This document shows positions 3,090 through 53,639 of a stretch of DNA of 64,000 nt, one piece after another. Below the pieces are notes generated by a model. The model was not told the origin of the DNA, searched no databases, and saw only the letters and a program-made list of their open reading frames with translations. Position numbers and translations under genes: made by a program. Source of the DNA: Candidatus Latescibacterota bacterium (GTDB lineage Bacteria; Latescibacterota; UBA2968; UBA8231). Positions within the stretch are counted from its first letter, which is position 1; every line of letters begins with the position of its first letter. Location: NCBI GenBank assembly GCA_965248265.1, contig CBDFJF010000002.1:2656001-2720000 (forward strand), read 5' to 3'.

Positions 3090-3190
3090 CCCTCGCCATA
3101 CCCGGTAAGCCCCACTATACCCATCCCGCCCTTCACAAAAGCCTCAAGTTTTCATTCGACACCAAGCCTCAAGCGATCTTGACTATTTAT
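3090..3190 (+). mobile_element. IS91/ISCR-family oriIS-proximal remnant, interrupted by IS1111-type copy A
   Basis: Near-identical to 4333-4430 and 52968-53050 (ttttcattcgacaccaag..gcgatcttgacta), which follow an IS91 transposase 3' end or lead to a ...cctatac tip. Confidence 0.7.
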
Positions 3191-3214
3191 CTCTTTAGGC
3201 GGAAAAGTGCAAGG

Positions 3215-3400
3215 TTTCTTTTCTGCAATTCGGAGGATTTCTTCAACTTGCAATAATCTCATTTCGGTCTTCAGTAGAGACCTTCATACTGTTCCGGCCA
3301 GAAGCCGAGCCAGAGGGACAGAGTGTAACGTGGGTGATCTTCCCGAAGGAGTCACGAATAAATAGCGGTCATCTCTGGCCCAGTTCCTCGTTGTTCGTCT
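3215..3400 (-). ncRNA. Predicted bridge/seek RNA of IS1111-type copy A
   Basis: Downstream non-coding region with two hairpin-closed loops. 3358-3365 is the exact reverse complement of the element's flank 3183-3190. Boundaries approximate. Confidence 0.7.
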
Positions 3401-3402
3401 TC

Positions 3403-4192
3403 TCAGGCGGCCGCCCGTTCGTATGATGCGGCACAGGTGAAGTGGCGTTCGGCGTTAAATGCTTGTCCGGAGCGGTACCAACCGTGAAGTTTTCGCAGGA
3501 AGTGCCTCATGACGGCGGTCATGGCTTTCTGTCCGGGCATGGAAAGGCGTTTGCTTCGGTAGTAGTCGCCGTACAGACCCGTTCTACGCACCAGGGGAAA
3601 GATGACCTGGCTGGGAATCTTACGCAGGAGAGCCCTTCCCTTCTTGGAGATTCTGTATTGCTCTCGATACTGACCGGATTGACGCATCTGAATATTGAGA
3701 CCGGCGTAGCGCATGAGCATACGCCAGCTGGTGAAATCGCTGAGTGGTCCGGTTTCACCGATGAGGCGAGCCAAATTCTTGGCTGATGACGCCCGAGGTC
3801 GGAGCGGGTAGGCTCGGATCTTTCTGACGCAGACGCCGCAAGAGCGAAATCAAGCGCTTTTCCAAGATCGCCTTGCGTTGCTCGTAGAGCAGGAACTCCT
3901 CCCACAGCTGGCTGAGGTCGACCTCGAGGAGATCGATGTATTCGGGTGTGAGTTGATGACGGGCGGTGGAGGTTGCGTCCTCCCAGAGCCGGTCCAGCGA
4001 GCACTGCCGGATACGCGGCGCCCGCCGCCGCATGGCCCGCTCGAAGCGGGTACGGCCCGCACGGACGATGCGATAGGGATTGCATCGATACTTATCGATC
4101 AAGGCGCGACCCGAGGTGCTGTAGAGAAAGCTCTTGGTGAAGGAGAAGTCGCAAAACAGCTCCATCAGCACGCGATGCAGTCGGCCACGCAC
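3403..4192 (-). pseudogene. IS110-family recombinase pseudogene (C-terminal half, frameshift near 3780)
   Basis: YAGL..RQSGQ motif; 2-bp deletion relative to the intact copy; DEDD RuvC half is missing. Confidence 0.9.
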
Positions 4193-4257
4193 GTTTGGAT
4201 ACCGGTCGGCCAAAGGCTGCTGAGATCTGCGGATAATCATGTTTTTCCGAAGGCCTT

Positions 4258-4430
4258 CCCAGCAATCCGAGTTCGAATACACGGCCTGATCGCAGCACCG
4301 CTTGATCCCACAGGATCGATGCGCCTGAATCGACCCTCGCCTGCCCGGCAAGCCCCAATATACGCATCCCGCCCCTCATAAAAGCCTCAAGTTTTCATTC
4401 GACACCAAGCCGCAAGCGATCTTGACTATC
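4258..4430 (+). mobile_element. IS91-family remnant (transposase last codons QQSEFEYTA* plus ori-proximal region)
   Basis: Matches the QQSEFEYAA* end at 52788 and the ori-proximal block at 3090-3190. Confidence 0.7.
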
Positions 4431-5278
4431 TATATGGCCGCTGATCAGGGTCACGCGCGCGGCCGCAAAGCGACCTCTGGTGGCTGGCATGAGGTCCCAC
4501 TCAATTCGTTAGATTGCGCGTAGCACGTGGGGGTAGCGCGTGCACGAGAGCCGATAATCAAAGACTGTCATGCGTACCCGCGCAAAGCCCTTCATCGTCC
4601 TCGTCGAACGCTTCTACCCCCGATCCGTTCGTCTTCGCCTCGTCCTGACGTTCGTCGCCGGGCTGATGGCGCTGGGGCTGACTGACCGGCGGAAGTCCTC
4701 GTTGCATGGGGTGAGGGACTCAAGGGGCTCCTTACCTTCATGACACAGATCGCATTGACTCTCGTCACTGCGCACGCACTGGCTCACACCGACACGATTC
4801 GTGCTGCACTTGCCTGCACTCAAGGCAGCGTGTCTAGTGCCCCAGCTTCTCGATCTCCCGCTGAATGAGGGTGGAGCCGGTAGCCAACGCCGAGTACGCC
4901 GCCGCTGCGCCTCAGCACGAATAAGCCGGACAGGCGGTTGCCCGGCCTCGGCGACGGAACGACCTTCTCTCCGACGCCCATCGACCGAGCAACCGCCGTC
5001 CACAGTGCACTCACGAGTAATCGTGAGAGACCCGCGCGGGTTCGGTCGTCTCAGACCACGGAGACGAGGATGCCGGATCGGAACCCACAGCCAACCGGTC
5101 GCTTCTGCGCTGGTGTTGGCCTCCGTCCGCCGAACAAGGCTGTGAGGGACTTAGCCACAAGCCATGGCGCCACGACCGGGCGTCTGCGAAGGGCACGATC
5201 CACCATCAACAGCCCCCATGTTTTTCGAAGTGAGCCGCTTCTCCTCGACGTCGCACGCCACACGGGTCCTGTCATCAG

Positions 5279-6307: not shown

Positions 6308-6331
6308 ACTATCATTCTACTGGCGCGACGT

Positions 6332-7288: not shown

Positions 7289-7502
7289 GCTCGCAGCGTT
7301 TGGCATCGCCATGGTCACCACGGCGACTCCGGTACCACTGGCGGGCAGAGCTTGCCCTTCGATGATTCCGCAATCGAACGCCGTCACCTTTAACGCAAGT
7401 TCATTCTGTCAACGCATTTCGACAAAGAGGGCTGGCCTCTAGAATGGGATTTAACGTAATTGGAGTTTCCGACCCAAACCTATACCAAGCCAGGCCCTGT
7501 TA

Positions 7503-33353: not shown

Positions 33354-33554
33354 GACCGACCGGCCGGACACCGCTGCGTTCCCATCTCTCGCTGACAGCT
33401 GCCGCGGCGCCCGCAGGCGCTGATCCGGGCACCTATCCACTGTCCCATCGTTCACCGCACCACGATCAACGCACAAGCACGACCCTCAACGCCCTCGAAA
33501 AGCCCAAAAACCGCTTGACTGACTACCGATCTCTTTAGGCGAAAGAAGTCAAGG

Positions 33555-33740
33555 CTTCTGTCTATTCGGAGGATTTCTTCAACTGGCAATAATCTCATTT
33601 CGGTCTTCAATGGAGACCTTCATACTGTTCCGGCCATGTTGAAGAAGCTGGGCCAGAGTGACGGGTTGTAACGCGGGTGATCTCCCAAGGGAGTCACGAA
33701 TCGGGAGCGGTCATCTCTGGCCAGTTCCTCGTTGTTCGTC
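33555..33740 (-). ncRNA. Predicted bridge/seek RNA of IS1111-type copy B
   Basis: Target loop 33669-33707 and donor loop 33592-33626 with guide matches to the flanks and element ends; boundaries approximate. Confidence 0.75.
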
Positions 33741-33743
33741 CTC

Positions 33744-35018
33744 TCAAGCTGCCTGCCGCTCGTAGGATGCAGCACAAGTGAAATGACGTTCGGTGTTGAA
33801 TGCTTGTCCGGAGCGGTACCACCCGTGGAGCTTTCGCAGAAAGTGTCTCATGACGGCAGTCATGGCTTTCTGTCCGGGCATGGCAAGGCGCTTACGGCGG
33901 TAGTAGTCGCCGTACAGACCCCTTCGTCGCACCAGGGGAAAGATGATCTGGCCAAGAATCTTACGCAGGAGAGGCCTTCCCTTCTTGGAAATCCTGTATT
34001 GCCCTCGATACTGGCCGGACTGGCGCATCTGGATATTGAGTCCGGCGTAGCGCAGGAGCATGCGCCAGCTGGTGAAGTCGCTGAGCGGTCCGGTTTCACC
34101 GATGAGGCGAGCCAGATTCTTGGCGCTGATGACGCCGGCAGTCGGAGCAGGTAGGCTCGGATCCTTGTGACGTAAACGCCGTAAGAGTGATGTCAGCCGC
34201 TTTTCCAGAGTAGCCTTGCGTTGCTCGTAGAGCAGGAACTCCTCCCACAACTGGCTGAGCTCAAGCTCGAGGAGATCGACGTAGGCGGGCGTGAGCTGAT
34301 GACGGGCGGAGGACGTGGCATCGTCCCAGAGCCGCTCTAGTGAACGCTGCCAGATACGCGGCGCCCGCCGCCGCATGGCCCGCTCGAAGCGGGTACGGCC
34401 CGCACGGACGATGCGATAAGGATTGCATCGATACTTATCGATCAAGGCGCGACCCGAGTTGCCGTACAGGAACTCCTTGGAGAAAGAAAAGTCGCAAAAC
34501 AGCTCCATCAGCACACGGTGCAGTCGGCCGCGCACCGCCATAAGGGCTCGATCGGCCCGCTCGTAGAGGAAGCCACATTTGCGCAGCAGCTCATACTCCT
34601 CAGGGAGATCCCGGTGCCGCAGGACCTTATTGAGCCGCGCCAGCGTATTGATGATGTGCGGGTCCTTGAGATCTGTCTTGCCGTCGTCATTGCTCTCGAC
34701 GACACGAAATTTGGCAACCGCCTCGCCGTTGACGTACGCCGTCAGGTGACCCAGTCGTCGCGCTGTGCGCAACAGCTTGTCCTGGTAGCCGCCTGAAGGC
34801 TCGCAGATGACTCGCAGTGATTTGAAGCCGTGCTCTCTCGCCAAGCGCCGACAGGCACGCAGCTTCTTCTCGATCTGTCGGGTCGTATTGGGCCACTCGT
34901 CATCCATGGCCTGATCGCCTAACTCAAAGTAGACATTGAGCTTGCTCTTGCTGACATCGACACAGATATCGAGGACCTGATCGAGTTGGACGGCCGGAGT
35001 CAACTTGGTAGATTTCAT
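33744..35018 (-). CDS. IS110-family DEDD/Ser recombinase
   Basis: VDVSK, CEPSG, KTDLKD, YAGL..RQSG. Confidence 0.95.
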   Translation of the reverse strand: MKSTKLTPAVQLDQVLDICVDVSKSKLNVYFELGDQAMDDEWPNTTRQIEKKLRACRRLAREHGFKSLRVICEPSGGYQDKLLRTARRLGHLTAYVNGEAVAKFRVVESNDDGKTDLKDPHIINTLARLNKVLRHRDLPEEYELLRKCGFLYERADRALMAVRGRLHRVLMELFCDFSFSKEFLYGNSGRALIDKYRCNPYRIVRAGRTRFERAMRRRAPRIWQRSLERLWDDATSSARHQLTPAYVDLLELELSQLWEEFLLYEQRKATLEKRLTSLLRRLRHKDPSLPAPTAGVISAKNLARLIGETGPLSDFTSWRMLLRYAGLNIQMRQSGQYRGQYRISKKGRPLLRKILGQIIFPLVRRRGLYGDYYRRKRLAMPGQKAMTAVMRHFLRKLHGWYRSGQAFNTERHFTCAASYERQAA

Positions 35019-35337
35019 GACGGGCTTCTCCTTTCAGATGCAGACGTGGGCACACGTCTTTGAGGGTCTTCGGACACCTCCGAATATCCGAAAGAGAAGC
35101 CCTCTTTGTTCGCCTAAGAGTATGTAATGCCGTTTATCCTCACTATGCGCTGCCCTCTGATCGAAGGGTACACGGGATGCTCATGGTCTCTACGAGAGAT
35201 TCGGGTTCGAGGTACTTGATGATTCCGCGGCTTGGATGCAGCTGAAGTTCGAGAGGCCATGGTTCCGACCCGAGATGGGCACAGAGTGAATCGAGGGCAC
35301 ACAGGTGGGCAGGACGTATAGGACCGATGAAGTACCA

Positions 35338-35576
35338 ACGTATAGGACCGATAAAGCACCATTATGATTAGTTTAGCTGGCGGCGGGATGGTGTCGAGAG
35401 GGAATGTGAACGGTGGATTGGGTGCCGGGTGCGATGGGCGAATGGATTGGGGGTGGATCAGGGCCTGCCAACGGGTCGATGAGGCCTGTCGGTCCGTTGA
35501 AAAACGCCGCCGGGGGGGAGGGGGGGTGGGGGGTGACAGGGTCGGATCATACCGTTTGGGTAAGCTGGGCAAAATA
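35338..35576 (-). repeat. 239-bp IS91 oriIS-type end, direct repeat copy 1
   Basis: Identical by eye to 36496-36734; ends ...tttatcggtcctatac. Confidence 0.85.
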
Positions 35577-36495: not shown

Positions 36496-36734
36496 ACGTA
36501 TAGGACCGATAAAGCACCATTATGATTAGTTTAGCTGGCGGCGGGATGGTGTCGAGAGGGAATGTGAACGGTGGATTGGGTGCCGGGTGCGATGGGCGAA
36601 TGGATTGGGGGTGGATCAGGGCCTGCCAACGGGTCGATGAGGCCTGTCGGTCCGTTGAAAAACGCCGCCGGGGGGGAGGGGGGGTGGGGGGTGACAGGGT
36701 CGGATCATACCGTTTGGGTAAGCTGGGCAAAATA
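36496..36734 (-). repeat. 239-bp IS91 oriIS-type end, direct repeat copy 2
   Basis: Identical by eye to 35338-35576. Confidence 0.85.
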
Positions 36735-36787: not shown

Positions 36788-39610
36788 ATGATGAACACCC
36801 AACGATGCAACTGCGTCCTGGCCCTGACGGTCCTCGGAGTTTTGGCGGCGCCGGCCGATGGACAGGTCATTGGGCCGCAGAAGAAGATCATTGCGTACAA
36901 GACCACTGTCCGCGGACTGTCGGCGAACATCGAGACGATGGAGGGCGAGCTTCCCGACATCGACGGGGTCATCATCTACCCGCCCGCCGGCCAGTCCTTC
37001 TTCACCGGCAGGCACCGGCTCGAGGACTACCAGACCGCGATCGAGCAGTTGCAGGACGTCCGCACCAGGGCCGGGAAGTACACGCACAACTTCATGCAAA
37101 GCTACCTCACTACCGGTGACAAAGGGGTCCTCCCCACCGACTGGTTCGATCCGCAGTTCGAGGACGTCGTCCACAACTGGAAGGTGGGTGCCGAGTTCTG
37201 TAAGCGCAGCGGCCTGGTGGGGATCCTGTTCGATGACGAGGTGTACTACGGTACGAACCTGTGGACCTACCGGGGCCTGAAACATGAGAACACCAGGTCG
37301 GCCAAGGAGTATGCCGACCAGGTCTTTCTGCGCGGCGCCCAGATCATGCGGGCCATCAACACCGTCTATCCCGATATCCGCATACTCATCCTCAACGGCC
37401 CGAGCAACATCCGGCTGTTCGAGGATGACGCCCGCTACGCTCTGACGCGGCACTTTGTCGACGGCCTCCTTTCGCAATGCACCGGCGGGTCCCAGATCAT
37501 CTGCGGATACGAGCGGGCCTATGGGTACCGCACGTCATCCCAGTTCGCCGCTGCCCGCCGGCTCATGAAGGAGAAACTGCTCCGCCTGAGCCGCGTGCCC
37601 GAGAAGTTCCAGCGCCATTTCCGCGCGGCATTCCCGTTTTACTTCATTCCGGCCCGCGAATACGGCCTCGACGACAACGAGAACCTGGAGAACATGTCGC
37701 CGGCACAGGCCGCGGAGTACTTCATTCCCGAGGAGTTCGAGTATGCCCTGCACCAGGCACTGCGGTACTCGGACGAGTACGTCTGGATCTACAAGGAGGG
37801 GAGCGGCCCGGACCTGTGGAACCGCAGAGCGGGGCGCCCCTACCTAGCGGCGGCCTACCGCGACGCCTTCGTCGCGGCCCGCAGGCCCCATCCCCACCCC
37901 CCAAAGAAACGCGGGCTCGCGGAATACCTCGCCCCGGCCGAGAAGGTGGAGCAGGAGCCCGCCGGGGCCCCGATCGGCGAAGGCAAGAAGGTCTACGTGG
38001 TGGTGGGCCCCAATCGCACCCCAGCGATGCTGCGCGAGCAGGTGGAATGGATGGAGGAAATGGCGGCCTTCGACGGCGTCCTCGTCTATCCGGGAATCCC
38101 ATCCGAGCATCGGGCGGGCGACGCCCTGGGGCGACTGTTCCGCATGGACCGGCGCAACCGAATCGAGGACTTCAGACAGGCCATCGAGGACCTGCGGGCC
38201 GCTCATGCCAAGGCCAAGAAATACCGGCACAACTTCCTGCTCACCTACCACGACCCCGTGGATACCGGTGACCGGACCATCAAGGTACCGGACTGGTTCG
38301 ACCCCGAATTCGAGACCGTGATCAACAACTGGCAGGTGGCGGCGGACTTCTGCAAGCGAGCCGGCCTCGTGGGCATCCACTTCACCGACATGGCATGGCA
38401 CAGCACCAACCTCTGGACCCACAAGGGTCTGAAGTACGCAAAGACCCGCAGCGCCCGGGAATATGCCGACCAGGTCTTTCTGCGCGGGGCCCAGATCATG
38501 CGTGCCATCAACACCGTGTATCCAGACATCCGCATTCTGGCGATGAACGGCCCCAGTAAGGCAGGCTTTAATCCTGACCCCGCGGCTCCCCACGCCCTGA
38601 TGCGGGCCTTCTTCGACGGGCTGCTCTCGCAGTGCACGGGCGCCGCCCGCATCATCGATGGCCACCAGATGGGGTGGGGGTATCGGTCGCCGGTGGCGTT
38701 CGCGTCGGCGCGCCGCGTGGTCAGGAGCAGATTGCGGGCGCTCAGCCGGGTCCCGGGAAAGTTCGACGAACATTTTCAGATCGCGTTCAGCGTGTCCGTG
38801 GGCCCCATGGGCGGGATGCCATTTTCCGACAATGTGGCCCGTAATTACTACACGCCGCAGGAGTTCGAGTACGTTCTGCACCAGGCCCTGAAGTACTGCG
38901 ATGAATATGTGTGGGTCTATACCACCGGATGTAACTGGTTCGACAAGGGGGCGAGCGGCGCTTTCATCGCCCGGGGCTATCGAGAGGCCCTGCTCGGGGC
39001 CCGCGGCCCGCACCCCCATCCGCCACCGCTGCGCAACCTCGACGCCCACGTCGCCTTGCGGCCGGGGCAGGGGGTGCCACCGCGCCGACTCGCCTTTGAG
39101 CCGGCACATGACGAGCAGGCCACGTTCGGCGATCTCTGGGCGCACTTTGTGTCCCTGGCCGACCTGTCGCCGCGGTGGCACTTCCGGATCGACCCCAATG
39201 ACCAGGGCGTGCAGGGGCGCTGGTTCGCCCCCGATCTGGACGAGAGCGATTGGTTTCTGATCAACAGTGATCTGCCGTGGGATAACTACGGGTACCGCGC
39301 CTATGACGGCTACGGCTGGTATCGCCAGACGTTCTCGGTCCCGCCGCTGCCCGACGGCAGGAAGGTGTTTCTTGCGTTTGGAGCCGTCGCTCACGGCGCC
39401 GAGGTGTACGTGAATGGCCGGTTGGCGGGGCACCACAACATGGACGGCTGGGCCCATTCACGTGGCGAACCCTGGAAGAAGCGATTCCTGATCGACGTGA
39501 CCGACACGCTTCGCGGCGGGCAGAGCAACCATCTCGCCGTCCGCGTCGTGGACTACGGCCCATGGGGCGGCGGCATCTGGAAGCCGGTCAAGCTGATTGC
39601 CGAGAAATGA
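36788..39610 (+). CDS. Secreted protein with two tandem GH-like domains and a C-terminal GH2-type sugar-binding domain
   Basis: Signal peptide; internal duplication (YADQVFLRGAQIMRAINTVYPDIRIL twice); YDGYGWYR..LAFGAV..VYVNG..GGIWKPV. Confidence 0.8.
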   Translation: MMNTQRCNCVLALTVLGVLAAPADGQVIGPQKKIIAYKTTVRGLSANIETMEGELPDIDGVIIYPPAGQSFFTGRHRLEDYQTAIEQLQDVRTRAGKYTHNFMQSYLTTGDKGVLPTDWFDPQFEDVVHNWKVGAEFCKRSGLVGILFDDEVYYGTNLWTYRGLKHENTRSAKEYADQVFLRGAQIMRAINTVYPDIRILILNGPSNIRLFEDDARYALTRHFVDGLLSQCTGGSQIICGYERAYGYRTSSQFAAARRLMKEKLLRLSRVPEKFQRHFRAAFPFYFIPAREYGLDDNENLENMSPAQAAEYFIPEEFEYALHQALRYSDEYVWIYKEGSGPDLWNRRAGRPYLAAAYRDAFVAARRPHPHPPKKRGLAEYLAPAEKVEQEPAGAPIGEGKKVYVVVGPNRTPAMLREQVEWMEEMAAFDGVLVYPGIPSEHRAGDALGRLFRMDRRNRIEDFRQAIEDLRAAHAKAKKYRHNFLLTYHDPVDTGDRTIKVPDWFDPEFETVINNWQVAADFCKRAGLVGIHFTDMAWHSTNLWTHKGLKYAKTRSAREYADQVFLRGAQIMRAINTVYPDIRILAMNGPSKAGFNPDPAAPHALMRAFFDGLLSQCTGAARIIDGHQMGWGYRSPVAFASARRVVRSRLRALSRVPGKFDEHFQIAFSVSVGPMGGMPFSDNVARNYYTPQEFEYVLHQALKYCDEYVWVYTTGCNWFDKGASGAFIARGYREALLGARGPHPHPPPLRNLDAHVALRPGQGVPPRRLAFEPAHDEQATFGDLWAHFVSLADLSPRWHFRIDPNDQGVQGRWFAPDLDESDWFLINSDLPWDNYGYRAYDGYGWYRQTFSVPPLPDGRKVFLAFGAVAHGAEVYVNGRLAGHHNMDGWAHSRGEPWKKRFLIDVTDTLRGGQSNHLAVRVVDYGPWGGGIWKPVKLIAEK

Positions 39611-39940: not shown

Positions 39941-40848
39941 GTATCGCCATAGGGAATGTAAGAACCCGGCTTGCCGATCGTGGACAGAAACATCAGGGAA
40001 AAGTCGCTGCACCCTATAAGTTCGGGCGGCGTGATCTCCTTGAGGGTTTTTCCCTCGTCGCGTGCCAGCAATGTCAGAGCGATCAGGGCTCGGTAGAGAG
40101 TTGCGGAGACGTAGCCGGGCCCTTCTCGGCCACCGTGATCTTCGGTAGCGTTGAAAACCAGATCTATAGATTCCAGCAGATCCTTTTTGGCCTGGTCGAT
40201 CCATGCCTGCGACCGAGGCCATAGCGACTTCATCGCCAGCAGCCCAGCGATCCGCCCCTGTGAAAAACCCGGTGCCTGATTACAGTGGAAAATGTACTCG
40301 TATTGCACAAAATCCTTGTTGATCAGGGACATACCTTTTTTGGAAACGGCTTCGAGGATGATCCTTCGGCCGGCCTCGGTCAGCAGGACCCCGGCCCAGT
40401 CCAATCCCAGGGCGCAGGAAAAGGCATAGCCGAAGCCTGTAAAGGAGCGATTATCGAAACAACTGCCCGGAAAATGCTCCTGGAAGCACTCGTCCCAGTA
40501 TTGGCTGTGGGCCATGGCCAATATGGCCCGGGCACTCATACGCAGCATCTCCACGTCGCCATCTACGATCCCGGCAAAGCCGCAAACCAAGGCGACATAT
40601 TCCGGGTCCGATTCCCCGCGTTGAATGTCATAGGCTCGGTGGTGCCGGTTGATGGTGGAGCTGGATTCCATCACGAACTGTTCCGGCTTCGCCGTGCTGA
40701 TCAGGTCTTGGGCCTTGACGCGCATCCCGTCCATCAATGGCTTGAACGCCCGGTGAGCCACTTTCTTCCGGAGGGCCTTCAGTTCACGCGTGTCAAACAG
40801 CAGGCCCAGCGTGGGATTCATTTCCACCGGCTCATCCGCCGGTTTGAT
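39941..40848 (-). pseudogene. Internal fragment of a heparinase II/III-like protein
   Basis: DHGGREGPGY and YIPYGD motifs; frame open between two IS91 pieces with no native start or stop. Confidence 0.55.
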
Positions 40849-41389
40849 GGATAGTGTGGATGAACAGGATTATCGGGAGTCAGTCAAGCGGCTTTTGAGG
40901 CTTTTCGAGGGCGTTGAGGGCGGTGCTTGTGGGTTGATGGTCGTCCGGCGAACGATGGGCCGGCGAATAGGGTGCGCGGATCAGCCTCTGCGGGCGCAAC
41001 GGCAGCGGTCAGCGAGAGATGGGGACGCAGCGGTGTCTGGCCGGTCGGTCTCAGGCGGCAAAGTCGAACTCGTCTTGGGGATGAGGCCGTGCCGGCGCGA
41101 TGGGCGGCGCGCGCGACGGCAGGCCGACGCCCTCCAGGTAGCATTGGATAGAACGTGGATCGGTGAGAGCAGCCACTATGTTCATGGGGCCACCGCAGGC
41201 GGGGCACACGCTAACGTCCACGCGAAAAACCCGTGCTAACAAGGCGGCCCAGGCCAGGCGGTGCCGGCGTTGGGCGGGGCTGGACTCCTTCGTATGCGCA
41301 CAAGGGTCCGCTTCGCGGGCCTCTTCTTTGCGGCCCGGTACAATCTGTGCCCGATCGGCGGCATTGGGGGCCAAGACGCCATGATACCG
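40849..41389 (-). mobile_element. IS91 remnant: transposase C-terminus plus intact oriIS
   Basis: RYHGVLAPNA...CPACGG...EFDFAA*; tip ttgactgactcccgataatcctgttcatccacactatcc. Confidence 0.88.
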
Positions 41390-42514
41390 ATGACCATATA
41401 TCACGAAGAGGGCATGTACGCCCTGAGCCCGAACGTGGTGCGCACGCCCTCCGGCGATCTGCTGGTGTTCTTCCAGCGGTCCCCGCATCTGGGCCATCCC
41501 CACCACGGCCATCCGCTGTCCAATGTGCAGGCCTGCCGCTCGCAGGACGAGGGGCAGACGTGGAGCAGACCGACGCTGATCACGGCGGATCCGCTGGGGG
41601 GGATCATGGACCGCGGCGTCTACACCCTCTCCGACGGCAGTATCTTCATGCATTGCTCGGGTACGGAGCTGGTGCCGGCCGAGGGGTCCGAGGCCCACGG
41701 ATCCGGGTGGGTCTCGCGCCCCGGCAAACCCTTCTGGGTGCGCTCCCGGGACGACGGCCACACCTGGAGTGAACCGGTGCGCTTCCCGCCCGTTCCGGAC
41801 GCCAACTACGGTCCCCTTGCCGAGCATTCGGGAGTCAGCCGCAGCGGCCTGATCGAGCTTCCCGACGGACGCCTGCTCATGCCCAGCAAGGCGACCGATC
41901 GCCCCGAGAGTGAACACAAATACTTCGGCATGCTGCGGGTGTCCAGCGACATGGGCGAGACGTGGGAGTACGGAGGACGGATCGCCGAAGACCCCGTCGT
42001 CCACTTCAGCGAGCCGGCCATCCACCGCACCCCCAGCGGCCGCATCCTGGTGATCTTTCGCTGTCACGCCAACATGGCGCGGGACGGGGACGAGTCTCTG
42101 CCGCTGCGTGACCGCCAGTACAACAGCCGTTTCCAGGCCCTGGTCACCTCCGACGACGACGGCGACACGTGGACGCCGTGGAAGCGCTCGGTGCACGGCT
42201 ACCCGGCCCACATGCTGGGGCTGCGGGACGGGCGCATCTTCCTCACCGTCGGCACCCGCTGGGACGGCCAGGCCGGCTGTCTCGCCCGCGTCCTGGATCC
42301 GGAAGGCACGGAGCTGGAGACCACGCCAATCCAGACCATGGCTCCCGACCTGGAAAACGGCCCCGACGTGATCGTGCAGAGCGATTCGTCCACCCAGGAC
42401 TGCGGCTACCCCTGGTCGGTGGAGCTGAACGACGGCCGCGTCCTGGTCGCCTACTGGCACCACTACCCGGACAATCACCGCGGCATCGAGGGCGCCATAC
42501 TGGCCGAGAAATGA
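41390..42514 (+). CDS. Sialidase-like BNR protein, 5' end clipped by the IS91 remnant
   Basis: SxDxGxTW repeats, DCGYP. Confidence 0.8.
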   Translation: MTIYHEEGMYALSPNVVRTPSGDLLVFFQRSPHLGHPHHGHPLSNVQACRSQDEGQTWSRPTLITADPLGGIMDRGVYTLSDGSIFMHCSGTELVPAEGSEAHGSGWVSRPGKPFWVRSRDDGHTWSEPVRFPPVPDANYGPLAEHSGVSRSGLIELPDGRLLMPSKATDRPESEHKYFGMLRVSSDMGETWEYGGRIAEDPVVHFSEPAIHRTPSGRILVIFRCHANMARDGDESLPLRDRQYNSRFQALVTSDDDGDTWTPWKRSVHGYPAHMLGLRDGRIFLTVGTRWDGQAGCLARVLDPEGTELETTPIQTMAPDLENGPDVIVQSDSSTQDCGYPWSVELNDGRVLVAYWHHYPDNHRGIEGAILAEK

Positions 42515-42542
42515 GCCCATTCAACCGGAAGGATTCATTCCT

Positions 42543-47109: not shown

Positions 47110-47913
47110 TTAGAGTCGATCGATGTAGACATAGTATGCGCCGACGTCGTTTCCATGCGCATCGACGAACCACGTTTGCAGCCGCGTCTCCCCGGCATTG
47201 AGCTTCACCGTGAACGAGATTCCGAAGTCGTCCGCGTTAACGTCGGCTTCTTTCTCGATGTCGGCCACACGGAGACGCGCCTTCCTGATCGGCAGCGCCT
47301 TCCCGCCGCCGTATCCGTCCTTGATCTCGACGTAGGAGCGGAGGTCTCCCTCTATGCCCTCCACGATCGGGCGATCTTCCTCCTTCGGCCATCGCCTGAG
47401 CTCGACACGATATCGGCTGGAGACAGCGACGTCGATTTCCCAGTAGCCGTTGCACGCCATTCCCGCCCGAACCTGCGACTGGTTCCAGGCACAGACCGCA
47501 TCCGGATTGCGCCAGTCGTGAGCGTTCAGCTGGACCGCAGGCACTTCGGTCGATCCAACGGGAATCGGGATCGTACCGCTGAACTGGCGGGACACCTTTG
47601 CCCACCACGCCTCGTAATCCTTCCGCAGGCGGGTGACGACATCCGGATAGTCCGCCGCGACATCCGTGGTCTGTCCAGGGTCCGTCCGGACGTCGAAGAG
47701 TTCTTTCCCGTTGATCAGGCGCCAGCGCTGCGTCATCGTCGCGCTCTTGCGCCACTTGATCGGGTCTGTGATCCGCTGCGAGTCGGTCACGAGCGTGCGA
47801 TCGGGCCAATCGACATCCTCTCCCCGAATTAGCGGGGCCACGCTCGTGCCGTCGAAGTCGTCGTCGTCGTGTTCGATCCCGCACAGATCCATCAGCGTCG
47901 GCATCATATCGAC
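47110..47913 (-). pseudogene. Arylsulfatase 3' half
   Basis: DMMPTLMDLCG, DGTS, ELFDVRTDPGQ; begins at an IS91 ori tip. Confidence 0.8.
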
Positions 47914-47969
47914 GCTTAGACAAGCGGTAACATGTCAACACCGATCGTGGGCAAATATCGAGTCTCCGT

Positions 47970-49160
47970 TCAGTTGAGGATAGGTGTGTAGGGACGATTG
48001 TTCTTGAGGACGCTGAAGACGACGTGGAGCATCTTGTTGGCGACATGAGTGAGCGCGACGAGATGGTGCTTGCCGCGATCAATGTGTCGCTGATAGACCT
48101 GGGTGAAGAGGGGGTCATGGCTCTTGAAGACGGCGATCTCTGAGGCTTGCATGACGGCGGTGCGCAGGTAGCGACTGCCGCGCTTGGACATTCTGCCGCG
48201 ACCGACCAGATCGCCGCTGTCGAACTGCTTGACGTCGAGGCCAGCGGTGGCGACGAATTTGCGAGCACCATGCTGATCCTCGGGATGAAACACGGGCAGG
48301 ATCTCGGCCAGGATGGTGGGTGCCCACACGGGCCCCAGACCTGGGACGGAGCGCAGAAGGCACTGCTGCTCGGTCACGAGATCTTGCAGTTGTTCGTCGA
48401 GTTGAGCGATCTGTTCGATGAGGAGGTTGACGCGCTCCATGACGAAGCGAATCTCCAGGGACAAGTGCTGACTGCGATGAGTGAGGGCGAAGGAGTTTTT
48501 AGCGGAGGCCTTCAAGGCTTGTGCCTGGTCTCGTCCGAAGGCTCCCCGACTGGCGTCCTTCAACAGACGCGTCAGGCGGCGGATGTCGACGCGGGCCAGG
48601 TCCTCAGCGGTGGGAAACTGTGCCAGCACGGCTCGACTGGAGGCACCGAAGAGATCGGAGAAGTGCTGCCCGTATTCGGGAAAAGCCAAGTCGAGGAGGC
48701 TGACGAGATGACCCTTTTGGGACTTGACGGTCTGTGCGCACTGATAGCGCAATCGCGTCAGATCGCGCAAGGACTGGACCTGTCGATCCGGGATAGCGCA
48801 GACCTTCAGATCGGTCTCCCGCAGCAGATGGGCGATCAGCAGGGCATCGGCGCTGTCGGTCTTGGTGCCACGGATGGTGATGTTGCGCCGCGCTGCCACG
48901 ACCAGGGGATTGATGAGGTCAACGACATACCCTGCCTGGACCAGGGCTTCGTAGAGGACCATCCAGTAGTGGCCGGTGGCCTCCATGCCGACGCGGATGT
49001 CGGCGGCGGGTTGTCCGGTCTCGGCCAGGCGTTGACACAACTGCTCGATGCCCTGGCGAGTCTGCTCCACGGCGAGATTACGGAAAACAGCCTGAGATTC
49101 CTCATCCAACAGCGTGGCGCGATGACTGCGTTTGGCCACATCAATTCCAAGTGTCCACAT
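47970..49160 (-). CDS. IS110-family DEDD/Ser recombinase
   Basis: GIDVAK, MEATGHY, KTDSADA, AGL....DSG, SKRG. Confidence 0.95.
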   Translation of the reverse strand: MWTLGIDVAKRSHRATLLDEESQAVFRNLAVEQTRQGIEQLCQRLAETGQPAADIRVGMEATGHYWMVLYEALVQAGYVVDLINPLVVAARRNITIRGTKTDSADALLIAHLLRETDLKVCAIPDRQVQSLRDLTRLRYQCAQTVKSQKGHLVSLLDLAFPEYGQHFSDLFGASSRAVLAQFPTAEDLARVDIRRLTRLLKDASRGAFGRDQAQALKASAKNSFALTHRSQHLSLEIRFVMERVNLLIEQIAQLDEQLQDLVTEQQCLLRSVPGLGPVWAPTILAEILPVFHPEDQHGARKFVATAGLDVKQFDSGDLVGRGRMSKRGSRYLRTAVMQASEIAVFKSHDPLFTQVYQRHIDRGKHHLVALTHVANKMLHVVFSVLKNNRPYTPILN

Positions 49161-49174
49161 TCGGCGAGCTCCTT

Positions 49175-49437
49175 GATCAAGTGACCGAAGCTGCCCACGA
49201 TCGGGGTGACGCCAGCTGGCACATCCTCGTAGCCAGATCAGGGAACGAAGGTCCCGTCAAGCGGTAAGTGCATGTGCTGGCGCAATGGCGGTCTAAGCCA
49301 GAGGACTGAGCCTCGAGTGGAGGATAGCCAACCCAGCAGCTTCGCTGATCCAGGATCGCATTGCTGGCATCAGGAAGCAAGCACTGAGAGTACGCAGCTG
49401 GTCGCCGTCTCGCGGGGCAGACACACCGAAGTGGCCT
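49175..49437 (-). ncRNA. Predicted bridge RNA of IS110 copy C
   Basis: Upstream non-coding region just after TATAAT; all four guide segments identifiable; boundaries approximate. Confidence 0.8.
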
Positions 49438-49443
49438 GCACCT

Positions 49444-49449
49444 ATTATA
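49444..49449 (-). promoter_or_regulatory. -10 box (TATAAT) of circle-junction promoter; -35 TTGACA at 47938-47933
   Basis: Circularising at the CT core gives TTGACA-17 bp-TATAAT. Confidence 0.85.
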
Positions 49450-49451
49450 CG

Positions 49452-49755
49452 AGTGGTTATAAAGTAGGTTATCGTTAGTCGATCAGGTGTTATTTTCGCT
49501 TTTTTTCGCGTTGATGGCGGTCTATGTGGGTTGACGGTCGTCGACTGAGCGCTTGAGGCTGCGAATAGGCCCGAAGGGGAGTGGCTGTGAACGAAGATGG
49601 GATTGCCAGCGAGGGATCAGGACACATCGGTGCCTTTGCTGTGACGACGAATCGATCTCAGGCGGCGAAATCTAGCTCGGACTGGGGATTGGGGCGTGCC
49701 GGGGCGATCGGCGGGGCCCGTGATGGCAGGCCGACCCCCTTCAGGTAGACGCGAG
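49452..49755 (-). mobile_element. IS91 remnant (transposase C-terminus plus oriIS, tip cut by IS110 copy C)
   Basis: YLKGVGLPSRAPPIAPARPNPQSELDFAA*; 49452-49676 repeated at 51351-51575. Confidence 0.85.
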
Positions 49756-49790
49756 CATCCCTCCGTACCCGCTTGCTATCAAACGATGGG

Positions 49791-51287
49791 TCAGCGTGCG
49801 TGTTTACCCGTGAGCCGTAAGAGTTTGCCGCCGCCGGGCATGAGTTCCACCTTGGCGCGGGCGCCGCCCGAGGCCGGGCGCCACTTCCGCTCGGTGGCGT
49901 CGAACACCGCCATTGAGCCCGGGCCGACTACGGTCGTGGTGACCCCTTGGGTGTAGTCGAGGTTCACCACCAGCACATGGGTGGGATCGCCGTCGGTACC
50001 GAAATAGCCCAAGAGCATGCCCGTCACCGGCGCCGGGGGGTTGAACTCAGCCGGCGGCACGGGCGGGTCAAGGGTGAAGCGGGCGTCGGCCGGCAGTCCC
50101 TGCGCCCCCAGGGGAACGGTGCCCAGATGATATGCACCCAGGGAAGTCAGCGGCTGCAGCTCGGTGCCGATGGCGATGAACTCGGGGTTGATCTGTCGCA
50201 GGGCCTCACCCAGCGGGGTCAGGGAATCATCCCAAAGAAGATAATTGGACACTCCCCCTCGAAAAGGACGGACACTGGCGTAGTACACAAACTGGGACAG
50301 GCCCTGGCCGCCATAGGCCAGCGTCGTGTAGGCCAGGAATCTCCCCTCGTCGCCGTTGGGCACGCGCCAGTCGTTGTAGCCCTCATCATCCACAGCGCAA
50401 GCCTGGACGACGTTGACGAAGGGCAGGCCGCTTTTCACCGCCGCTTCGCGGACCAGGGCCAGGTTGAGGAAGTACTGGACGTTGTCACCCTGGCGGAGCT
50501 GGCTGTCCTCAACGAACCGTTCGCTGCCAACTTCGCGCGCAAGCTCACCGAGGAAGTGGTAGTGGTCATAGCTGATCAAGTCGGGCTTGACGATCTCAAC
50601 GAACTGGCGGAGGTGCTCTCTGTAGGCATGGATGCTATAGCCCACGCCTGCAAGAGCATCAAGCGCTCGCTGTTCATCAGAAATCGGTGCATTCGGATCG
50701 ATGGGGATGCCCAGGTTATTAGCGCTGGCGTAAGTGGGGAATAGATTGACGAGGCACATGTGATCGGGGTCACGCTCGCGGATGTACGCCACCAGCCTGC
50801 CCAACTCCGGAAAAAAGGTGGCGCTGTAGGAGAGCTCATCATAGAGGTAGTAGCCGTACATCGCCGGATGGTTCTTCACCCGTTCGATCATCGCATCGAG
50901 TCGCGCCCTGCGCCGCGGGTCGTCCAAGATGAAGGGGGTGATCGTCTGGGCGCCGAAACCGAGGTATCCGGCAAAAAACAACGCCCGCAGCCCCTGCGCG
51001 TGCGCAGCGTCCAGCTCCTCCACGGTCTGGCACCAGACCAGGTTGAAGCCGCCGTCATCCAACTTCCCGGCGATGGCGGGCGTCACCGGCCCGAAATTGG
51101 CCCCCGGGCCCTGGTAGTAGGACGTGATGGGTGCGCCGATCTCCCACTTGCTGCCCGCCGGCCGGCCCCGTGCGGCACCTGAGGCGGACGCGTCCGATGT
51201 TGTGCATACTACCGCCCCCAGCAGTACGAGGCCGAAGATCCGGTACAACCAAATTCTGCCAACATCCGAAGGCTCAGGAAATGTCAT
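49791..51287 (-). CDS. Secreted glycoside-hydrolase-like protein
   Basis: Signal peptide; HPAMYGYYLYDE, VNLFP, ISYDHY. Confidence 0.7.
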   Translation of the reverse strand: MTFPEPSDVGRIWLYRIFGLVLLGAVVCTTSDASASGAARGRPAGSKWEIGAPITSYYQGPGANFGPVTPAIAGKLDDGGFNLVWCQTVEELDAAHAQGLRALFFAGYLGFGAQTITPFILDDPRRRARLDAMIERVKNHPAMYGYYLYDELSYSATFFPELGRLVAYIRERDPDHMCLVNLFPTYASANNLGIPIDPNAPISDEQRALDALAGVGYSIHAYREHLRQFVEIVKPDLISYDHYHFLGELAREVGSERFVEDSQLRQGDNVQYFLNLALVREAAVKSGLPFVNVVQACAVDDEGYNDWRVPNGDEGRFLAYTTLAYGGQGLSQFVYYASVRPFRGGVSNYLLWDDSLTPLGEALRQINPEFIAIGTELQPLTSLGAYHLGTVPLGAQGLPADARFTLDPPVPPAEFNPPAPVTGMLLGYFGTDGDPTHVLVVNLDYTQGVTTTVVGPGSMAVFDATERKWRPASGGARAKVELMPGGGKLLRLTGKHAR

Positions 51288-51344
51288 TCTTCCGATCTCC
51301 TTTGTTTGTTCTTTGCAATCCAACGGATAGCACGATAAGGGACC

Positions 51345-51575
51345 ACGCTTAGTGGTTATAAAGTAGGTTATCGTTAGTCGATCAGGTGTTATTTTCGCTT
51401 TTTTTCGCGTTGATGGCGGTCTATGTGGGTTGACGGTCGTCGACTGAGCGCTTGAGGCTGCGAATAGGCCCGAAGGGGAGTGGCTGTGAACGAAGATGGG
51501 ATTGCCAGCGAGGGATCAGGACACATCGGTGCCTTTGCTGTGACGACGAATCGATCTCAGGCGGCGAAATCTAGC
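51345..51575 (-). repeat. IS91 oriIS end, direct repeat of 49452-49676, uninterrupted
   Basis: 225 bp identical by eye; tip ...tttataaccactaagc. Confidence 0.88.
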
Positions 51576-51779
51576 GTCTCCGAATCAGCAGGGCACGTGG
51601 GCGACGACTTCTGGTCTATCGAGTACAAGGTGGAGTTCGGTCACCTGTCAAAGATTCCCACGCCTGAAAAAGGTGACCGCTGGGGAGTTTCCGCTCAGCG
51701 CGTGTATCGACAGGCGGAGTGGAGTGTGTGGACTGTCGCGGACGAGAATATGAACTATGGATGGTTCCTGTTTCAGTGA
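51576..51779 (+). pseudogene. C-terminal fragment of a CBM9-like sugar-binding protein
   Basis: WSIEYKVEF..L..P..GDRWG..R..YGWFLFQ*. Confidence 0.45.
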
Positions 51780-51873
51780 CAGAGTGACCACCCTGGCTCG
51801 CGAAATGCGAGGCCTGCCCGACGCCGCGGATCTGTTTGCCGTTCACGGCACTGCGCTGTAGCGCGAGTAGGTG

Positions 51874-52413
51874 TCAGGCTTCGAGGGCGGCGCCGCGCCC
51901 ATGGCGCACGACCTTCGTGGCCAGTGAAAGCGCTGCGGTCACGGGGGTAGGGAGCTTCTCACCCGTGCTTGGGCCGTACAGCAGCCTGCCGTTCAGCGTG
52001 TCCCCAGCCCCGATGGAGCTGGATTGCGAAACCGCCTCAGTCGGCACAGTGCCGGACTCATTGCTGGCCGCGGCATAGAGAGCACCTTGGGCACCGCGCT
52101 CGATCACGACGCAATCGGGTCCGGCCGCGAGGACAGCTCCTGCCAGTGCTTCGCCGCATTCGTCAGGCAACCACTGGGCGAGCTCCTCTTCGGTGGCAAC
52201 CAGGCCGTAGAGGTGCGTCAAAAGGGCCACCATGCGCTCCCGCGGAACTCTCCCCGCGAACCACGGGCTGGGATCGAAGACGATCCGCGTGCCCTCACCG
52301 TGGGCCGCGGCAAACAGCTCTTCGAGCTCGCCGAAATCCTCGACGAATAGGGAGTACGTGGGCTCCCTGAGCGCCAGCTCTCCGCGCAGAGTACCTTCAA
52401 ACCTCGCGAACAC
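51874..52413 (-). pseudogene. PfkB-family carbohydrate kinase C-terminal fragment
   Basis: VFDP, RGAQGA, IGAGD. Confidence 0.7.
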
Positions 52414-52578
52414 CGGGCGCCTTATTAATCCTCAAGCGGCTTGCGACCGCCTCTGGCTCATCCTGAGAGATCGCGGCTGCGGCAGTTCATGGGCATCGCG
52501 TCGCGCGACATAGGGTAACCCGTCTCGCAGATCAAGGGAACAGCCATGCAGCAGAACGACCAGCACCTCGAGCTTTGA

Positions 52579-52967
52579 GTATAGGATAAATGAGTGGCGT
52601 TATGGTGAGTTTAGATCCTTGTGAGGTTTGGGGTCGAGTGGATCTTGGGATCTTTCTGAACGGCGGAATGGGGGTTTCAGGCCATCGACGGGCATGCCGA
52701 AGGAGAGGGATCCAGGGTTGAGCGTGGTTTTCCCTTTTTTGCGACCCGGATGATCAGTTGGGGCGCAGCAATCCAAGCGCGCTGCGATCAGGCGGCGTAT
52801 TCGAACTCAGACTGCTGATCGTGCCTTGCCGGAGCAATTGGCGGAGGCCTTGCCGGCAGGCCCACCCCCTCGAGGTATGACCGAATCGAGGCGGGGTCGG
52901 TCAGAGCAGCCACTATTTTCATCTGCCCCCCACACTCGGGGCATTCTGAAACGTCAATCGAAAACAC
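52579..52967 (-). mobile_element. IS91 remnant (transposase C-terminus plus oriIS)
   Basis: VFSIDVSECPECGG..EFEYAA*; tip ccataacgccactcatttatcctatac. Confidence 0.85.
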
Positions 52968-53071
52968 GGCCAAAGTACCCATCCCGTCCATCACAAAAGC
53001 TCAGATTTTCATTCGACACCAAGACGCGGGCGATCTTGACTACCCATAACGGCCCCTTATTTATCCTATAC
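52968..53071 (+). mobile_element. IS91 oriIS end
   Basis: gcgatcttgactacccataacggccccttatttatcctatac; first 45 bp repeated at 53416-53460. Confidence 0.8.
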
Positions 53072-53395
53072 TCGCCCTCCCCCCCCTGCCCGTGTCTGAA
53101 ATGTGGTTGTACCGGATCACATGCCCGGACCGGGCGACACGGCCGTCGACCTGTCTTTCAGGCACGTCCATCCAGCAGTTGATCGCCCCCAGGTCACGGT
53201 TTTCCTGACACGTCCGACTCATTCGGTTGAATTCGAGGATATTGCGGCCGAACCCATTGGCCCCGAGATTGATACCGTGATGCGGCATGTCGTGAATCTC
53301 GTTGTGGGCCACGAGGTTCGCGTCCGACAGCCCCAGGAACACGCCGGCGCAGTAGTTGTTGATCCGGACGGGATGATGAATGGGGCCGGAATCCA
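53072..53395 (-). pseudogene. Right-handed beta-helix protein internal fragment
   Basis: NLVAHNEIHDMPHHGI, NILEFN, DLGAIN, VIRYNHISDT. Confidence 0.7.
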
Positions 53396-53639
53396 CCCTC
53401 GCCCAGCTCCCGCAAGGCCAAAGTACCCATCCCGTCCATCACAAAAGCTCAGATTTTCATCGGCACCACCCATGGCATTGCGGATCAAGCCGGTCCCAAG
53501 GCCGAATCGACGGTCCCATCGCACCCCACCCGACCCACGGCCGGCACCCAAGCGCCCTGGCGACAGCAAGCACCACCATCGAATCCAAAAAAAAACCCAC
53601 TTGACCGACTCCCGATAACACCGTTTATCCTCCCTATGC
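53396..53639 (+). mobile_element. Chimeric IS91 oriIS end
   Basis: Left part like 3090/52968; tip ttgaccgactcccgataacaccgtttatcctccctatgc like 40849. Confidence 0.75.

Follow-up and report, generated by a model that had tools for sequence, protein, structure and literature searches.

How do three RNA-guided recombinase elements come to lie, in one stretch of bacterial DNA, within the ends of another family of transposons? The question is posed by a window of 64,000 nucleotides (the whole stretch analysed, G000:C2:2656001-2720000) from a Candidatus Latescibacterota bacterium, whose genome (G000) comprises 7.32 Mb with 59.6% G+C in two contigs, C1 and C2; positions without a contig prefix refer to the window. 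It harbours three elements of the IS110 family of insertion sequences (IS), named copies a, b and c1, which encode proteins matching Pfam PF01548 and PF02371. A preliminary description of this DNA had placed all three in ends of IS91-type elements, and comparison with uninterrupted copies bears this out, each element splitting the transposase-distal end at a fixed nucleotide. Altogether, the evidence makes it very probable that three deeply diverged IS110-family lineages, one of them found outside the window, integrate by means of their own guide RNA into the last ~25 bp of that IS91 end. Mechanistically this would be ordinary recombination guided by a bridge RNA or seekRNA, which joins a circular donor to a short target site; the novelty seems to lie in the class of target and in the convergence of three lineages on it.

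The target can be described from the IS91 side. Copy b lies 107 nt 3' of the stop codon of a 521-aa IS91-family transposase gene (31858-33423; PF04986, Y2_Tnp, E 2.9e-27; PF14319, E 1.4e-19), where it splits a type A end as ...GACTACCGAT^(GT)AATGCCGTTTATCCTCACTATGCGC, breaking after ...CCGAT an end that is uninterrupted in other copies. Nine copies of the 150 nt that follow the IS91 stop align up to a shared tip, ...CTTGACTGACTACCGAT-AATGCTGTTTATCCTCACTATGC, and then diverge, the type A end lying 100-110 nt past the stop in full IS91 copies. Copy a is preceded by ...GACTATTTAT of a type B end (...GATCTTGACTnnnnAT-AACGGGCCCTTATCGTTCTT), which reads GACTnnnnAT^AACGGGCCCTTATCGTTCTT in uninterrupted copies and at three loci lies 100-150 nt downstream of the 3' coding remnants left by a second IS91 subgroup, with which it agrees in orientation; together with the related type D end, which follows a long open frame of this second subgroup, types B and D account for four loci. 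Copy c1 sits in a type C tip, with AAGCGT directly following it on the far side, and the uninterrupted paralogue at 51340-51426 puts its CT at a distance of 6 nt from where the shared sequence ends. In this regard, the sites proposed in the preliminary description (GACTnnnnAT^AA some 23-24 bp inside the tip for copies a and b, a CT a few bp from the tip for c1) were correct as judged from uninterrupted copies. Its identification of the flanks as IS91 right ends also stands, given that, in two IS91 subgroups, they follow Y2-transposase genes or their 3' remnants at a distance of 100-150 nt and with the same orientation. The insertion points of all three lineages fall within the terminal 25 nt, which are the best-conserved part across end subtypes A-E. 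The reverse model, with IS91 inserted beside IS110-family elements, was ruled out, both flanks being continuous in uninterrupted copies. As a separate observation, a second and different tip (GGTCCCTTATCGTGCTATCCG) directly follows the empty type C tip (AAGCGT; 51426-51300, minus strand), which shows that IS91 ends also abut each other.

We call these sequences ori ends for their position at the tnpA-distal (3') end, as in characterised members of the IS91 family. In the members studied, the left end is terIS and oriIS is contained in the last 82 bp of the right end (PMC13181058); a 17-bp oriIS is located 167 bp downstream of the coding sequence in a Sphingobium IS91 (PMC5737581), and that of ISCR1 is on the downstream side (PMC6218425). 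By analogy with these members, the targeted sequence would also work as an origin.

The elements themselves are of two kinds. Copies a and b are of the IS1111 type, with subterminal inverted repeats (sTIRs) and a non-coding region 3' of the transposase gene. Copy b is intact, and copy a keeps the seekRNA region (3191-3402) and a frameshifted transposase remnant (PF02371 match at 3403-3774), its 5' third being gone. Copy c1 is of the IS110 type, intact and devoid of terminal inverted repeats, with 291 non-coding nt upstream of the gene (49161-49451) versus 52 nt downstream, and encodes a transposase matching PF01548 over the full length of that domain (E 3.6e-39, 1-155 of 155) as well as PF02371 (E 2.6e-16). 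Its left end begins CGTATAAT and its right end terminates ...CTTGTCT; a core dinucleotide CT precedes the left end and closes the right end in copies c1-c3, with TT plus one extra base in copy c4. The transposases of c1 and c2 (C2:2724257-2725790) are identical (tblastn, 396/396 aa), with 98.9% identity over the 280 nt of their left ends; such identity in elements lodged in different end subtypes (type C and type A) points to recent movement. Moreover, joining the right end of c1 to its left end in a predicted circle, and only this, would create a perfect sigma-70 promoter (TTGACA-17 nt-TATAAT). No Rfam family was found within the window at the gathering score.

Is this location a peculiarity of the window? 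A scan with two nhmmer profiles, both derived from ends of this genome itself, gave (at E < 1e-3) 77 matches at 76 distinct ori-like loci, each of at most 95 nt and making up ~0.1% of the 7.32 Mb. Eight of the nine loci of lineage a/b lie inside these ends, including copies a and b, the left-end junctions at C2:2763258 and C2:582270, a right-end junction at C2:2387195, and a right-end remnant of 25 nt at C1:177799. At the two others of the eight (C2:2759491-2759578 and C2:2263808-2263889), 5-6 nt of the ori end are replaced by 9-10 nt, CTCTTTAGG(C), which correspond to the last bases of the right end of the IS1111-type element, with GC or GG microhomology at the join; these scars are remnants of almost wholly deleted insertions. 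The ninth locus (C2:1904880-1904995) has no ori context: there a left end abuts 12 nt of a right end at C2:1904981, reading ...AAAGAG-ACATA-CTCTT... with 5 nt (ACATA) between the inverted repeats, and it looks like a fossil circle junction or a tandem joint. In lineage c, all four left junctions (4/4) fall at the CT, once TT, of the tip, c1 being in a type C end, c2 in a type A end, and c3 and c4 in type B-like ends; three remnants with only a right end precede ATGC, ATAC or ATCC, which are compatible with a tip and too short to score. The expectation under which the proposal would have fallen, with other copies sitting mostly in unrelated sequence, is thus not what these counts give.

A third lineage emerged from the PF01548 search. 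This element, ISd (C2:~929877-931437), is IS1111-type with a transposase of 347 aa and a 3' region of ~420 nt, and its subterminal repeats (ATGAGAAAGCC / GGCTTTCTCAT) differ from those of a/b; its one copy (1/1) occupies a type A-like end, ~8 nt tip-ward of the a/b site. The transposases of the three lineages share at most 35% identity, over local stretches, and the convergence of unrelated IS110 subgroups, which had been proposed for two, therefore extends to three. No relative of ISd was found at E 1e-30 or better in the 75 other genomes of the order, for which reason its targeting is read from this single copy. Two side observations concern ISd: its 3' non-coding region contains a 100-nt tandem duplication (C2:929876-930075), and the ori tip remaining beside it (~C2:931460) has a 14-nt insert resembling an ISd end.

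Copies and remnants of IS91 and of the IS110 family are concentrated, for the most part, in C2:2.65-2.80 Mb, a region of ~150 kb that includes the window and forms a hot spot, or a graveyard, of nested elements. This crowding, together with a 225-nt perfect repeat of one end in the window, might suggest that a single ancestral composite of an IS110 element within an IS91 end was copied by IS91 transposition or duplication, so that the insertions would not be independent. Copies of the same lineage, however, lie in different subtypes and flanks (c1 in C, c2 in A, c3 and c4 in B-like ends; a in B, b in A), their guides differ and fit their own flank in each case, and of the duplicated 225-nt end one copy is occupied and the other empty, all of which makes such co-mobilisation highly improbable. 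Independent integration by each lineage at its own site is the preferred account of this anatomy.

A detail of the a/b site concerns two nucleotides at the crossover. All six occupied a/b sites with a left junction (6/6) read AT-GT-AA, whereas among 55 ends whose site was legible only ~3 unoccupied ones have the GT (read by eye). One possibility is that the element recognises only a minority allele. The other, which we favour, is that ACATA is the left extension of the element and that crossover takes place at AT^AA, because ACAT is invariant in relatives with unrelated targets, the abutted ends at C2:1904981 retain ACATA, and ends without GT are abundant. The extension beyond the sTIR in a/b accordingly looks like 5 + 0 (ACATA), or 1 + 2 if the GT is target, in which case copy b would end at 35123. 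In the IS1111 family, extensions of 7 bp on the left and 3 bp on the right of the sTIR, and transposases of 330-350 aa, are given in the excerpts of PMC11187229.

The strongest link between elements and sites comes from the guides, which the preliminary description had matched to the flanks and which now show complementarity and covariation with them under permutation. In IS1111-family seekRNAs, a top-strand match lies 5' of a bottom-strand match (PMC11187229), and both a/b and ISd fit this order, their T guide lying 5' of the B guide and the two matches overlapping in the target. The T guide of a/b is a hexamer between conserved blocks of the 3' non-coding region that varies among copies and reads the four variable bases of GACTnnnnAT plus the AT, five variants being found among six ori-targeting copies. 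Over ten copies, the six ori-targeting ones plus four with other targets, T guide and right flank match at 54 of 60 positions, with 33.8 expected and none of 100,000 permutations reaching this value; for the six ori-targeting copies alone the match is 33/36, a figure reached by 18 of 720 permutations. The B guide, which ends in ACA ~25 nt downstream of the T guide (24 nt in copy b), equals the left flank at 7-8 of 9 positions in six copies; it reads ..ATTACA in ori-targeting copies and ..CTGCACA or ..CTCCACA in relatives with other flanks, as read by eye. Another candidate for the bottom-strand guide of copy b, ATTAT from a k-mer search, was dropped, since relatives show a co-varying segment ending in ACA. 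In ISd, the guides are ATAATGCCCTG (10/11 to the flank; T, positions 127-137 of the region) and, 3' of it, TATAAAGATTG (11/11; B, positions 156-166).

The IS110-type lineage carries its predicted RNA on the other side of the gene. The fold of 11 homologous 5' regions displays two variable stretches around a small hairpin, followed by an invariant second domain, a layout in which left and right target guides (LTG, RTG) and left and right donor guides (LDG, RDG) can be assigned. In nine copies the RTG matches at 5-6 of 6 positions and the LTG at 4-9 of 9 (9/9 in G012 L004 and G007 L003). Altogether, 72 of 99 non-core positions match in these nine copies (42.8 expected; 0/200,000 permutations), and in the seven ori-targeting copies 55/77 match, as many as in 2 of 5,040 permutations. 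Left out of the permutation tests were L005 and L007 (no right flank), L014 (LTG register unclear), L015 (contig ends), L016 and L002 (guides not extracted), L017 (flanks as in L002), L113 (T guide mismatching the flank as called), and L111, L112 and L115-L119 (one end missing).

Table. Positions of the IS110-family elements, their predicted guides and the IS91-type ends, in window coordinates unless a contig or locus is named
Feature	Position	Strand	Details
IS1111-type copy a, degenerate	3191-4192	-	right end with sTIR at 3191; truncation near 4192; 83-91% identical to copy b
IS1111-type copy b, intact	33531-35125	-	transposase 33744-35018 (424 aa); 3' non-coding region 33531-33743 (213 nt)
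sTIRs of copy b	33531-33541 and 35111-35120		CTCTTAGGCG / CGCCTAAAGAG
IS110-type copy c1, intact	47918-49451	-	1534 bp; transposase 47970-49160 (396 aa); ends from three-copy alignment
-35 hexamer TTGACA of predicted circle-only promoter, c1 right end	47933-47938	-	in the circle, 17 nt from -10 TATAAT (49444-49449, left end)
T guide, copy a	3358-3363	-	RNA ATTTAT; complement ATAAAT, right flank ATAAAT, 6/6
T guide, copy b	33700-33705	-	RNA CCCGAT; complement ATCGGG, right flank ATCGGT, 5/6
T guide, third copy of this genome	C2:2386963-2387195 (copy)		complement ATCGAT, right flank ATCGAT, 6/6
T guide, related genome	G007 L094		complement ATCGCT, right flank ATCGCT, 6/6
T guide, related genome	G007 L099		complement ATCGCT, right flank ATCGTT, 5/6
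T guide, metagenome contig	L107		complement ATCGGT, right flank ATCGGG, 5/6
B guide, copy b	33667-33675	-	RNA CGCGTTACA, left flank GGCATTACA, 7/9
Predicted bridge RNA structured core, c1	49203-49341	-	RNAalifold over 11 homologues: 30 pairs, 6 with compensatory changes
LTG of c1	49316-49326	-	TATCCTCCACT; 5' variable stretch
RTG of c1	49293-49298	-	GCTTAG; complement CTAAGC = core + right flank, 6/6
LDG of c1	49256-49267	-	TTACCGCTTGAC; matches right end ...TTACCGCTTGTCT
RDG of c1	49226-49231	-	TACGAG; complement CTCGTA = core + first four bases of left end, 6/6
IS91-family element, type A	31520-33530	+	left boundary ~31520, from similarity to other copies; inner part of right end to ...GACTACCGAT
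Tip of the split type A end	35126-35150	+	AATGCCGTTTATCCTCACTATGCGC; nhmmer profile positions 62-90
Type B right end, inner part, occupied by copy a	3101-3190	+	90-nt repeat ending ...CTTGACTATTTAT; nhmmer type B E 3.7e-11, profile positions 8-62 only
Second type B ori-like end, tip degenerate	4344-4445	+	preceded by IS91 3' coding remnant ~4200-4343, weak match (E 0.07-0.12)
Uninterrupted type A end of degenerate IS91 copy	40845-40931	-	nhmmer E 2e-18; coding remnant 41051-42520; inverted repeats
Type C IS91 end and 3' remnant, c1 at the tip	49452-49676	-	...TTTATAACCACT^; one copy of the 225-nt perfect repeat
Empty paralogue of the c1 target	51340-51575	-	same 225 nt, ending ...TTTATAACCACTAAGCGT; uninterrupted end 51340-51426; nhmmer E 2.4e-7, profile positions 5-92
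Uninterrupted type B-like end	52988-53074	+	...GACTACCCATAACGGCCCCTTATTTATCCTATAC; end alignment, nhmmer
Uninterrupted type A-like end	53574-53642	+	...GACTCCCGATAACACCGTTTATCCTCCCTATGC; inverted repeat, nhmmer

In a region so rich in repeats the junctions might be artefacts of assembly, and the read contigs available, from four runs of one sample, are indeed short and break at repeats. Junctions of the same types nevertheless recur outside this genome, in four others as well as in a metagenome contig of independent origin, and misassembly would not create complementarity between guides and flanks, which leaves artefact as the least probable of the explanations considered here. A joint 33528>35122, which skips 1593 nt and has 19-23 nt on its shorter side, is present in all four runs; it was rejected as a sign of excision of copy b, being explained by a paralogous end (C2:2725812-2725962) that is 99% identical up to the site and has the GT allele.

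The search of the order covered 76 genomes. Remnants of the c type are found at six loci in G007, G009, G011 and G012, where the left flanks resemble a tip and close with CCT or CT and the right flanks open with ATAC or ATCC, and IS91 coding remnants lie at most 1.5 kb from four of the six. Elements of the a/b type occur in G007, G012 and G066, with ori-like flanks at four G007 loci and not at the two loci of G012 and G066. Y2_Tnp genes are present in all three genomes searched for them (G007, G011 and G012). In this line, the metagenome contig L107, with a transposase 95% identical, has both ori flanks and an adjacent IS91 transposase, of which the last 124 codons are on the contig. More distant relatives target other sequences: those of the c type, with 50-65% identity and from other phyla (L013, L014, L015, L016 and L018), occupy unrelated sites with guides to match, and those of a/b, with 70-76% identity (L108-L110, L113 and L114), occupy unrelated sites with other guides. 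Targeting of ori ends is therefore a trait of sub-lineages, acquired by reprogramming, and not of whole clades.

From these data a mechanism can be proposed in which a DEDD recombinase and the non-coding guide RNA of the same element would integrate it in one orientation per lineage. Lineage a/b, with its seekRNA 3' of the gene, would recombine at GACTnnnnAT^, ISd would do so ~8 nt further tip-ward, and lineage c, with its bridge RNA 5' of the gene, would use the CT 6 nt from the tip; that these RNAs are made and guide recombination is what their sequences lead us to infer. The IS91 end would be a good landing site, as it is present in many copies, stays conserved because the IS91 transposase requires it, does the host no harm and is itself mobile. 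Insertion would part the tip, or the junction of tip and flank, from the subterminal 82 bp required by IS91, and would presumably immobilise the invaded copy. Safe-site parasitism of a multi-copy, conserved and mobile sequence is the most economical reason for the targeting.

Several observations weigh against this account, in its guides, its products and its target. The a/b right-end junction at C2:2387195 has the opposite orientation to the rest, its guide being palindromic. The LTG of c1 and c2 fits in register at 5/9, over only the 4-5 core-proximal bases, and fits type A/E tips only with a one-base bulge; no ori tip was among the matches listed when targets of the c1/c2 guides were searched at up to 2 mismatches. 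The tip of c3 fits its own LTG at 4/9, with at least five better-fitting type D tips empty, and seven type E ends with the identical tip ...CTTATCCTCACTAAGCGC (C2:1134268-1156319) match the RTG at 6/6 yet are unoccupied. Three more PF01548 remnants (C2:579063, C2:1778098 and C2:1895010) have no ori end within 2.5 kb; these are fragments or members of another lineage. No IS91 transposase gene was found within 1.5 kb of six IS1111-type loci in G007, G012 and G066, and neither a circle nor an excision product was seen in the read contigs of the four runs. On the side of the target, many of the ends are solo remnants. A tetranucleotide CTTG or GTTC adjoins oriIS in the members studied (IS91, IS801 and IS1294), and no CTTG, GTTC or GTCC was found next to the tips in this genome, where the flanks beyond the tips vary. 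Finally, hairpins in the single-stranded DNA of two ori ends, on both strands, were no better than in shuffled sequences (z -0.9 to +1.7), and a structure-based reason for the insertion points was dropped on this ground. Members of the IS91 family differ among themselves, so the absence of tetranucleotides and palindromes weakens the claim of origin function and not that of a right end.

The target-side observations nourish another explanation, according to which these are repeats derived from IS91 ends, mostly dead solo ends, targeted for their abundance alone, the function of the origin being irrelevant and the phrase "targets rolling-circle origins" an overstatement. No intact transposase accompanies most of the 76 ori-like loci, a full Y2_Tnp match being present in only four open frames, of 486-534 aa, out of 16 matches in the genome; moreover, ori-like flanks persist in G007, where only two Y2_Tnp matches are left, and the flanking tetranucleotide and significant hairpins expected of an origin are absent. 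Against it, the IS91 copy whose end is interrupted by copy b encodes an intact transposase of 521 aa, an IS91 transposase likewise adjoins the element in L107, and the insertion points all fall in the terminal 25 nt that are best conserved across subtypes A-E. We regard this explanation as unlikely, and it departs from ours in the function given to the end, not in the anatomy.

Beyond parasitism, the insertions might have been selected because they turn IS91 mobilisation off reversibly, from which either the host or IS91 itself would profit, with ori alleles and guides engaged in an arms race. Roughly 15 of the 76 ori-like loci are occupied now or were formerly (our own tally), the T guide reads exactly the four variable bases of GACTnnnnAT with guide variants that track them, and the GT is constant in occupied sites and rare in unoccupied ones. 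Nothing shows selection, however, and parasitism of a multi-copy safe site predicts the same pattern; the read contigs contain no excision product and most copies of all lineages are degenerate. An off-switch is accordingly quite improbable in our judgement, and we hold in equally low regard the more general idea that IS110-family elements are natural RNA-guided antagonists of HUH rolling-circle transposons that reversibly switch off single IS91 copies. If it were true, the ori alleles (the variable bases of GACTnnnnAT, the GT indel at the crossover and tip subtypes A-E) and the guides would be partners in an arms race, and bridge recombinases might, as a wider rule, exploit the DNA signals on which single-strand nucleases act. 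Such a rule would connect with repetitive extragenic palindromic (REP) sequences, which are known targets of the IS110 family and also substrates of HUH nucleases.

Guided integration into the IS91 end would be of interest in several ways. IS91/ISCR-type elements carry adjacent genes by one-ended rolling-circle transposition, a process whose control is little understood, and the system offers a testable case of one transposon family disabling another. Its closely related guide variants and their cognate sites are a natural series of reprogramming, including a tolerated distal mismatch and a possible bulge. In addition, three independent scaffolds of protein and RNA directed at one 25-bp sequence are useful for comparing the target rules of IS110 and IS1111, and the analysis illustrates that target classes of the IS110 family can be discovered from a single genome by reading guides against flanks.

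Some other features of the region deserve mention. The 225-nt perfect direct repeat (49452-49676 and 51351-51575; IS91 ori end plus 3' remnant), of which only one copy contains the IS110-type element, brackets a gene for 510 aa (49791-51323, minus strand), which looks like a capture by one-ended IS91 transposition or a tandem duplication. Beside c1, an open frame of 265 aa (47110-47907, minus strand), which we take from inspection by eye to be the C-terminal part of a sulfatase, begins directly at the junction of the IS91 tip and c1, and this start indicates a gene truncated by IS91 insertion or by a later deletion. A 239-nt perfect repeat (35338-35576 / 36496-36734) and repeats of ~75% identity spaced 1128-1158 nt apart (37139-38559) suggest a recent tandem gene duplication; the open reading frame (ORF) 36104-37477 matches the N-terminal domain of glycoside hydrolase family 31. 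At 59869-62496, two long ORFs contain at least 10 copies of a 44-nt unit that looks like D-x-D-x-D-G calcium-binding repeats (FG-GAP/VCBS-like).

As for precedents, a full-text literature search, with supplements outside its scope, found no description of IS110 or IS1111 insertion in IS91 or ISCR ends. In the excerpts obtained, the term matched in 10.1101/2025.10.25.684509 was IS911 and not IS91, the sole mention in 10.64898/2026.08.14.744561 concerned the asymmetric ends of IS91, and oriIS and IS110 were mentioned in PMC5737581 in unrelated contexts. Such targets may be present, without having been recognised as such, in the tables of natural targets of PMC11208160 and among the target logos of PMC11187229.

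Among known systems, the element invaded resembles IS91, IS801, IS1294 and ISCR in having a Y2 HUH transposase with a zinc-binding domain and unlike ends. Its targeted end lies 100-150 nt downstream of the gene, the side on which oriIS is placed in the excerpts on IS91, ISCR1 and the Sphingobium IS91. It differs from the family in lacking CTTG/GTTC at the tips and in presenting several end subtypes (A-E) in one genome, with an origin that is putative.

The transposase of IS621 has ~326 aa and that of element c 396 aa. Element c shares with IS621 a two-loop RNA 5' of the gene, the layout of the guides, the CT core and the absence of inverted repeats, but its natural target is an IS91 end and not a REP, and the LTG of its active-looking copies fits their sites only over 4-5 core-proximal bases. 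For IS621, the excerpts of PMC11208160 (Durrant et al. 2024) describe a bridge RNA 5' of the gene with two loops and a CT core, in which the LTG matches the left target together with the core, the RTG is complementary to core and right target, and LDG and RDG correspond to the ends of the element. On the IS1111 side, ISEc11, ISKpn4, ISPst6 and ISPa11 have, according to PMC11187229 (Siddiquee et al. 2024), a seekRNA 3' of the gene, the same guide order and matches that overlap at the crossover, and likewise include close relatives that were naturally reprogrammed; their targets, in contrast, are attC, REP or a short linear site. Compared with the IS1111-family elements described there, a/b have a longer transposase (424 aa versus 330-350) and an extension that is apparently 5 + 0 instead of 7 + 3.

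The closest likeness in habit is found in IS4321 and IS5075, of the IS1111 group, which target the terminal inverted repeats of the Tn21 family. They too insert with site and orientation specificity into the functional end of another transposon family, and they share the subterminal inverted repeats as well as the position of the non-coding region, 3' of the gene; the target of IS4321 is named with nearly 900 insertions in the excerpts of PMC11187229. The host here is, unlike theirs, an HUH rolling-circle IS with unlike ends and not a DDE transposon with inverted repeats, and a single one of its ends is invaded, by three lineages at three positions.

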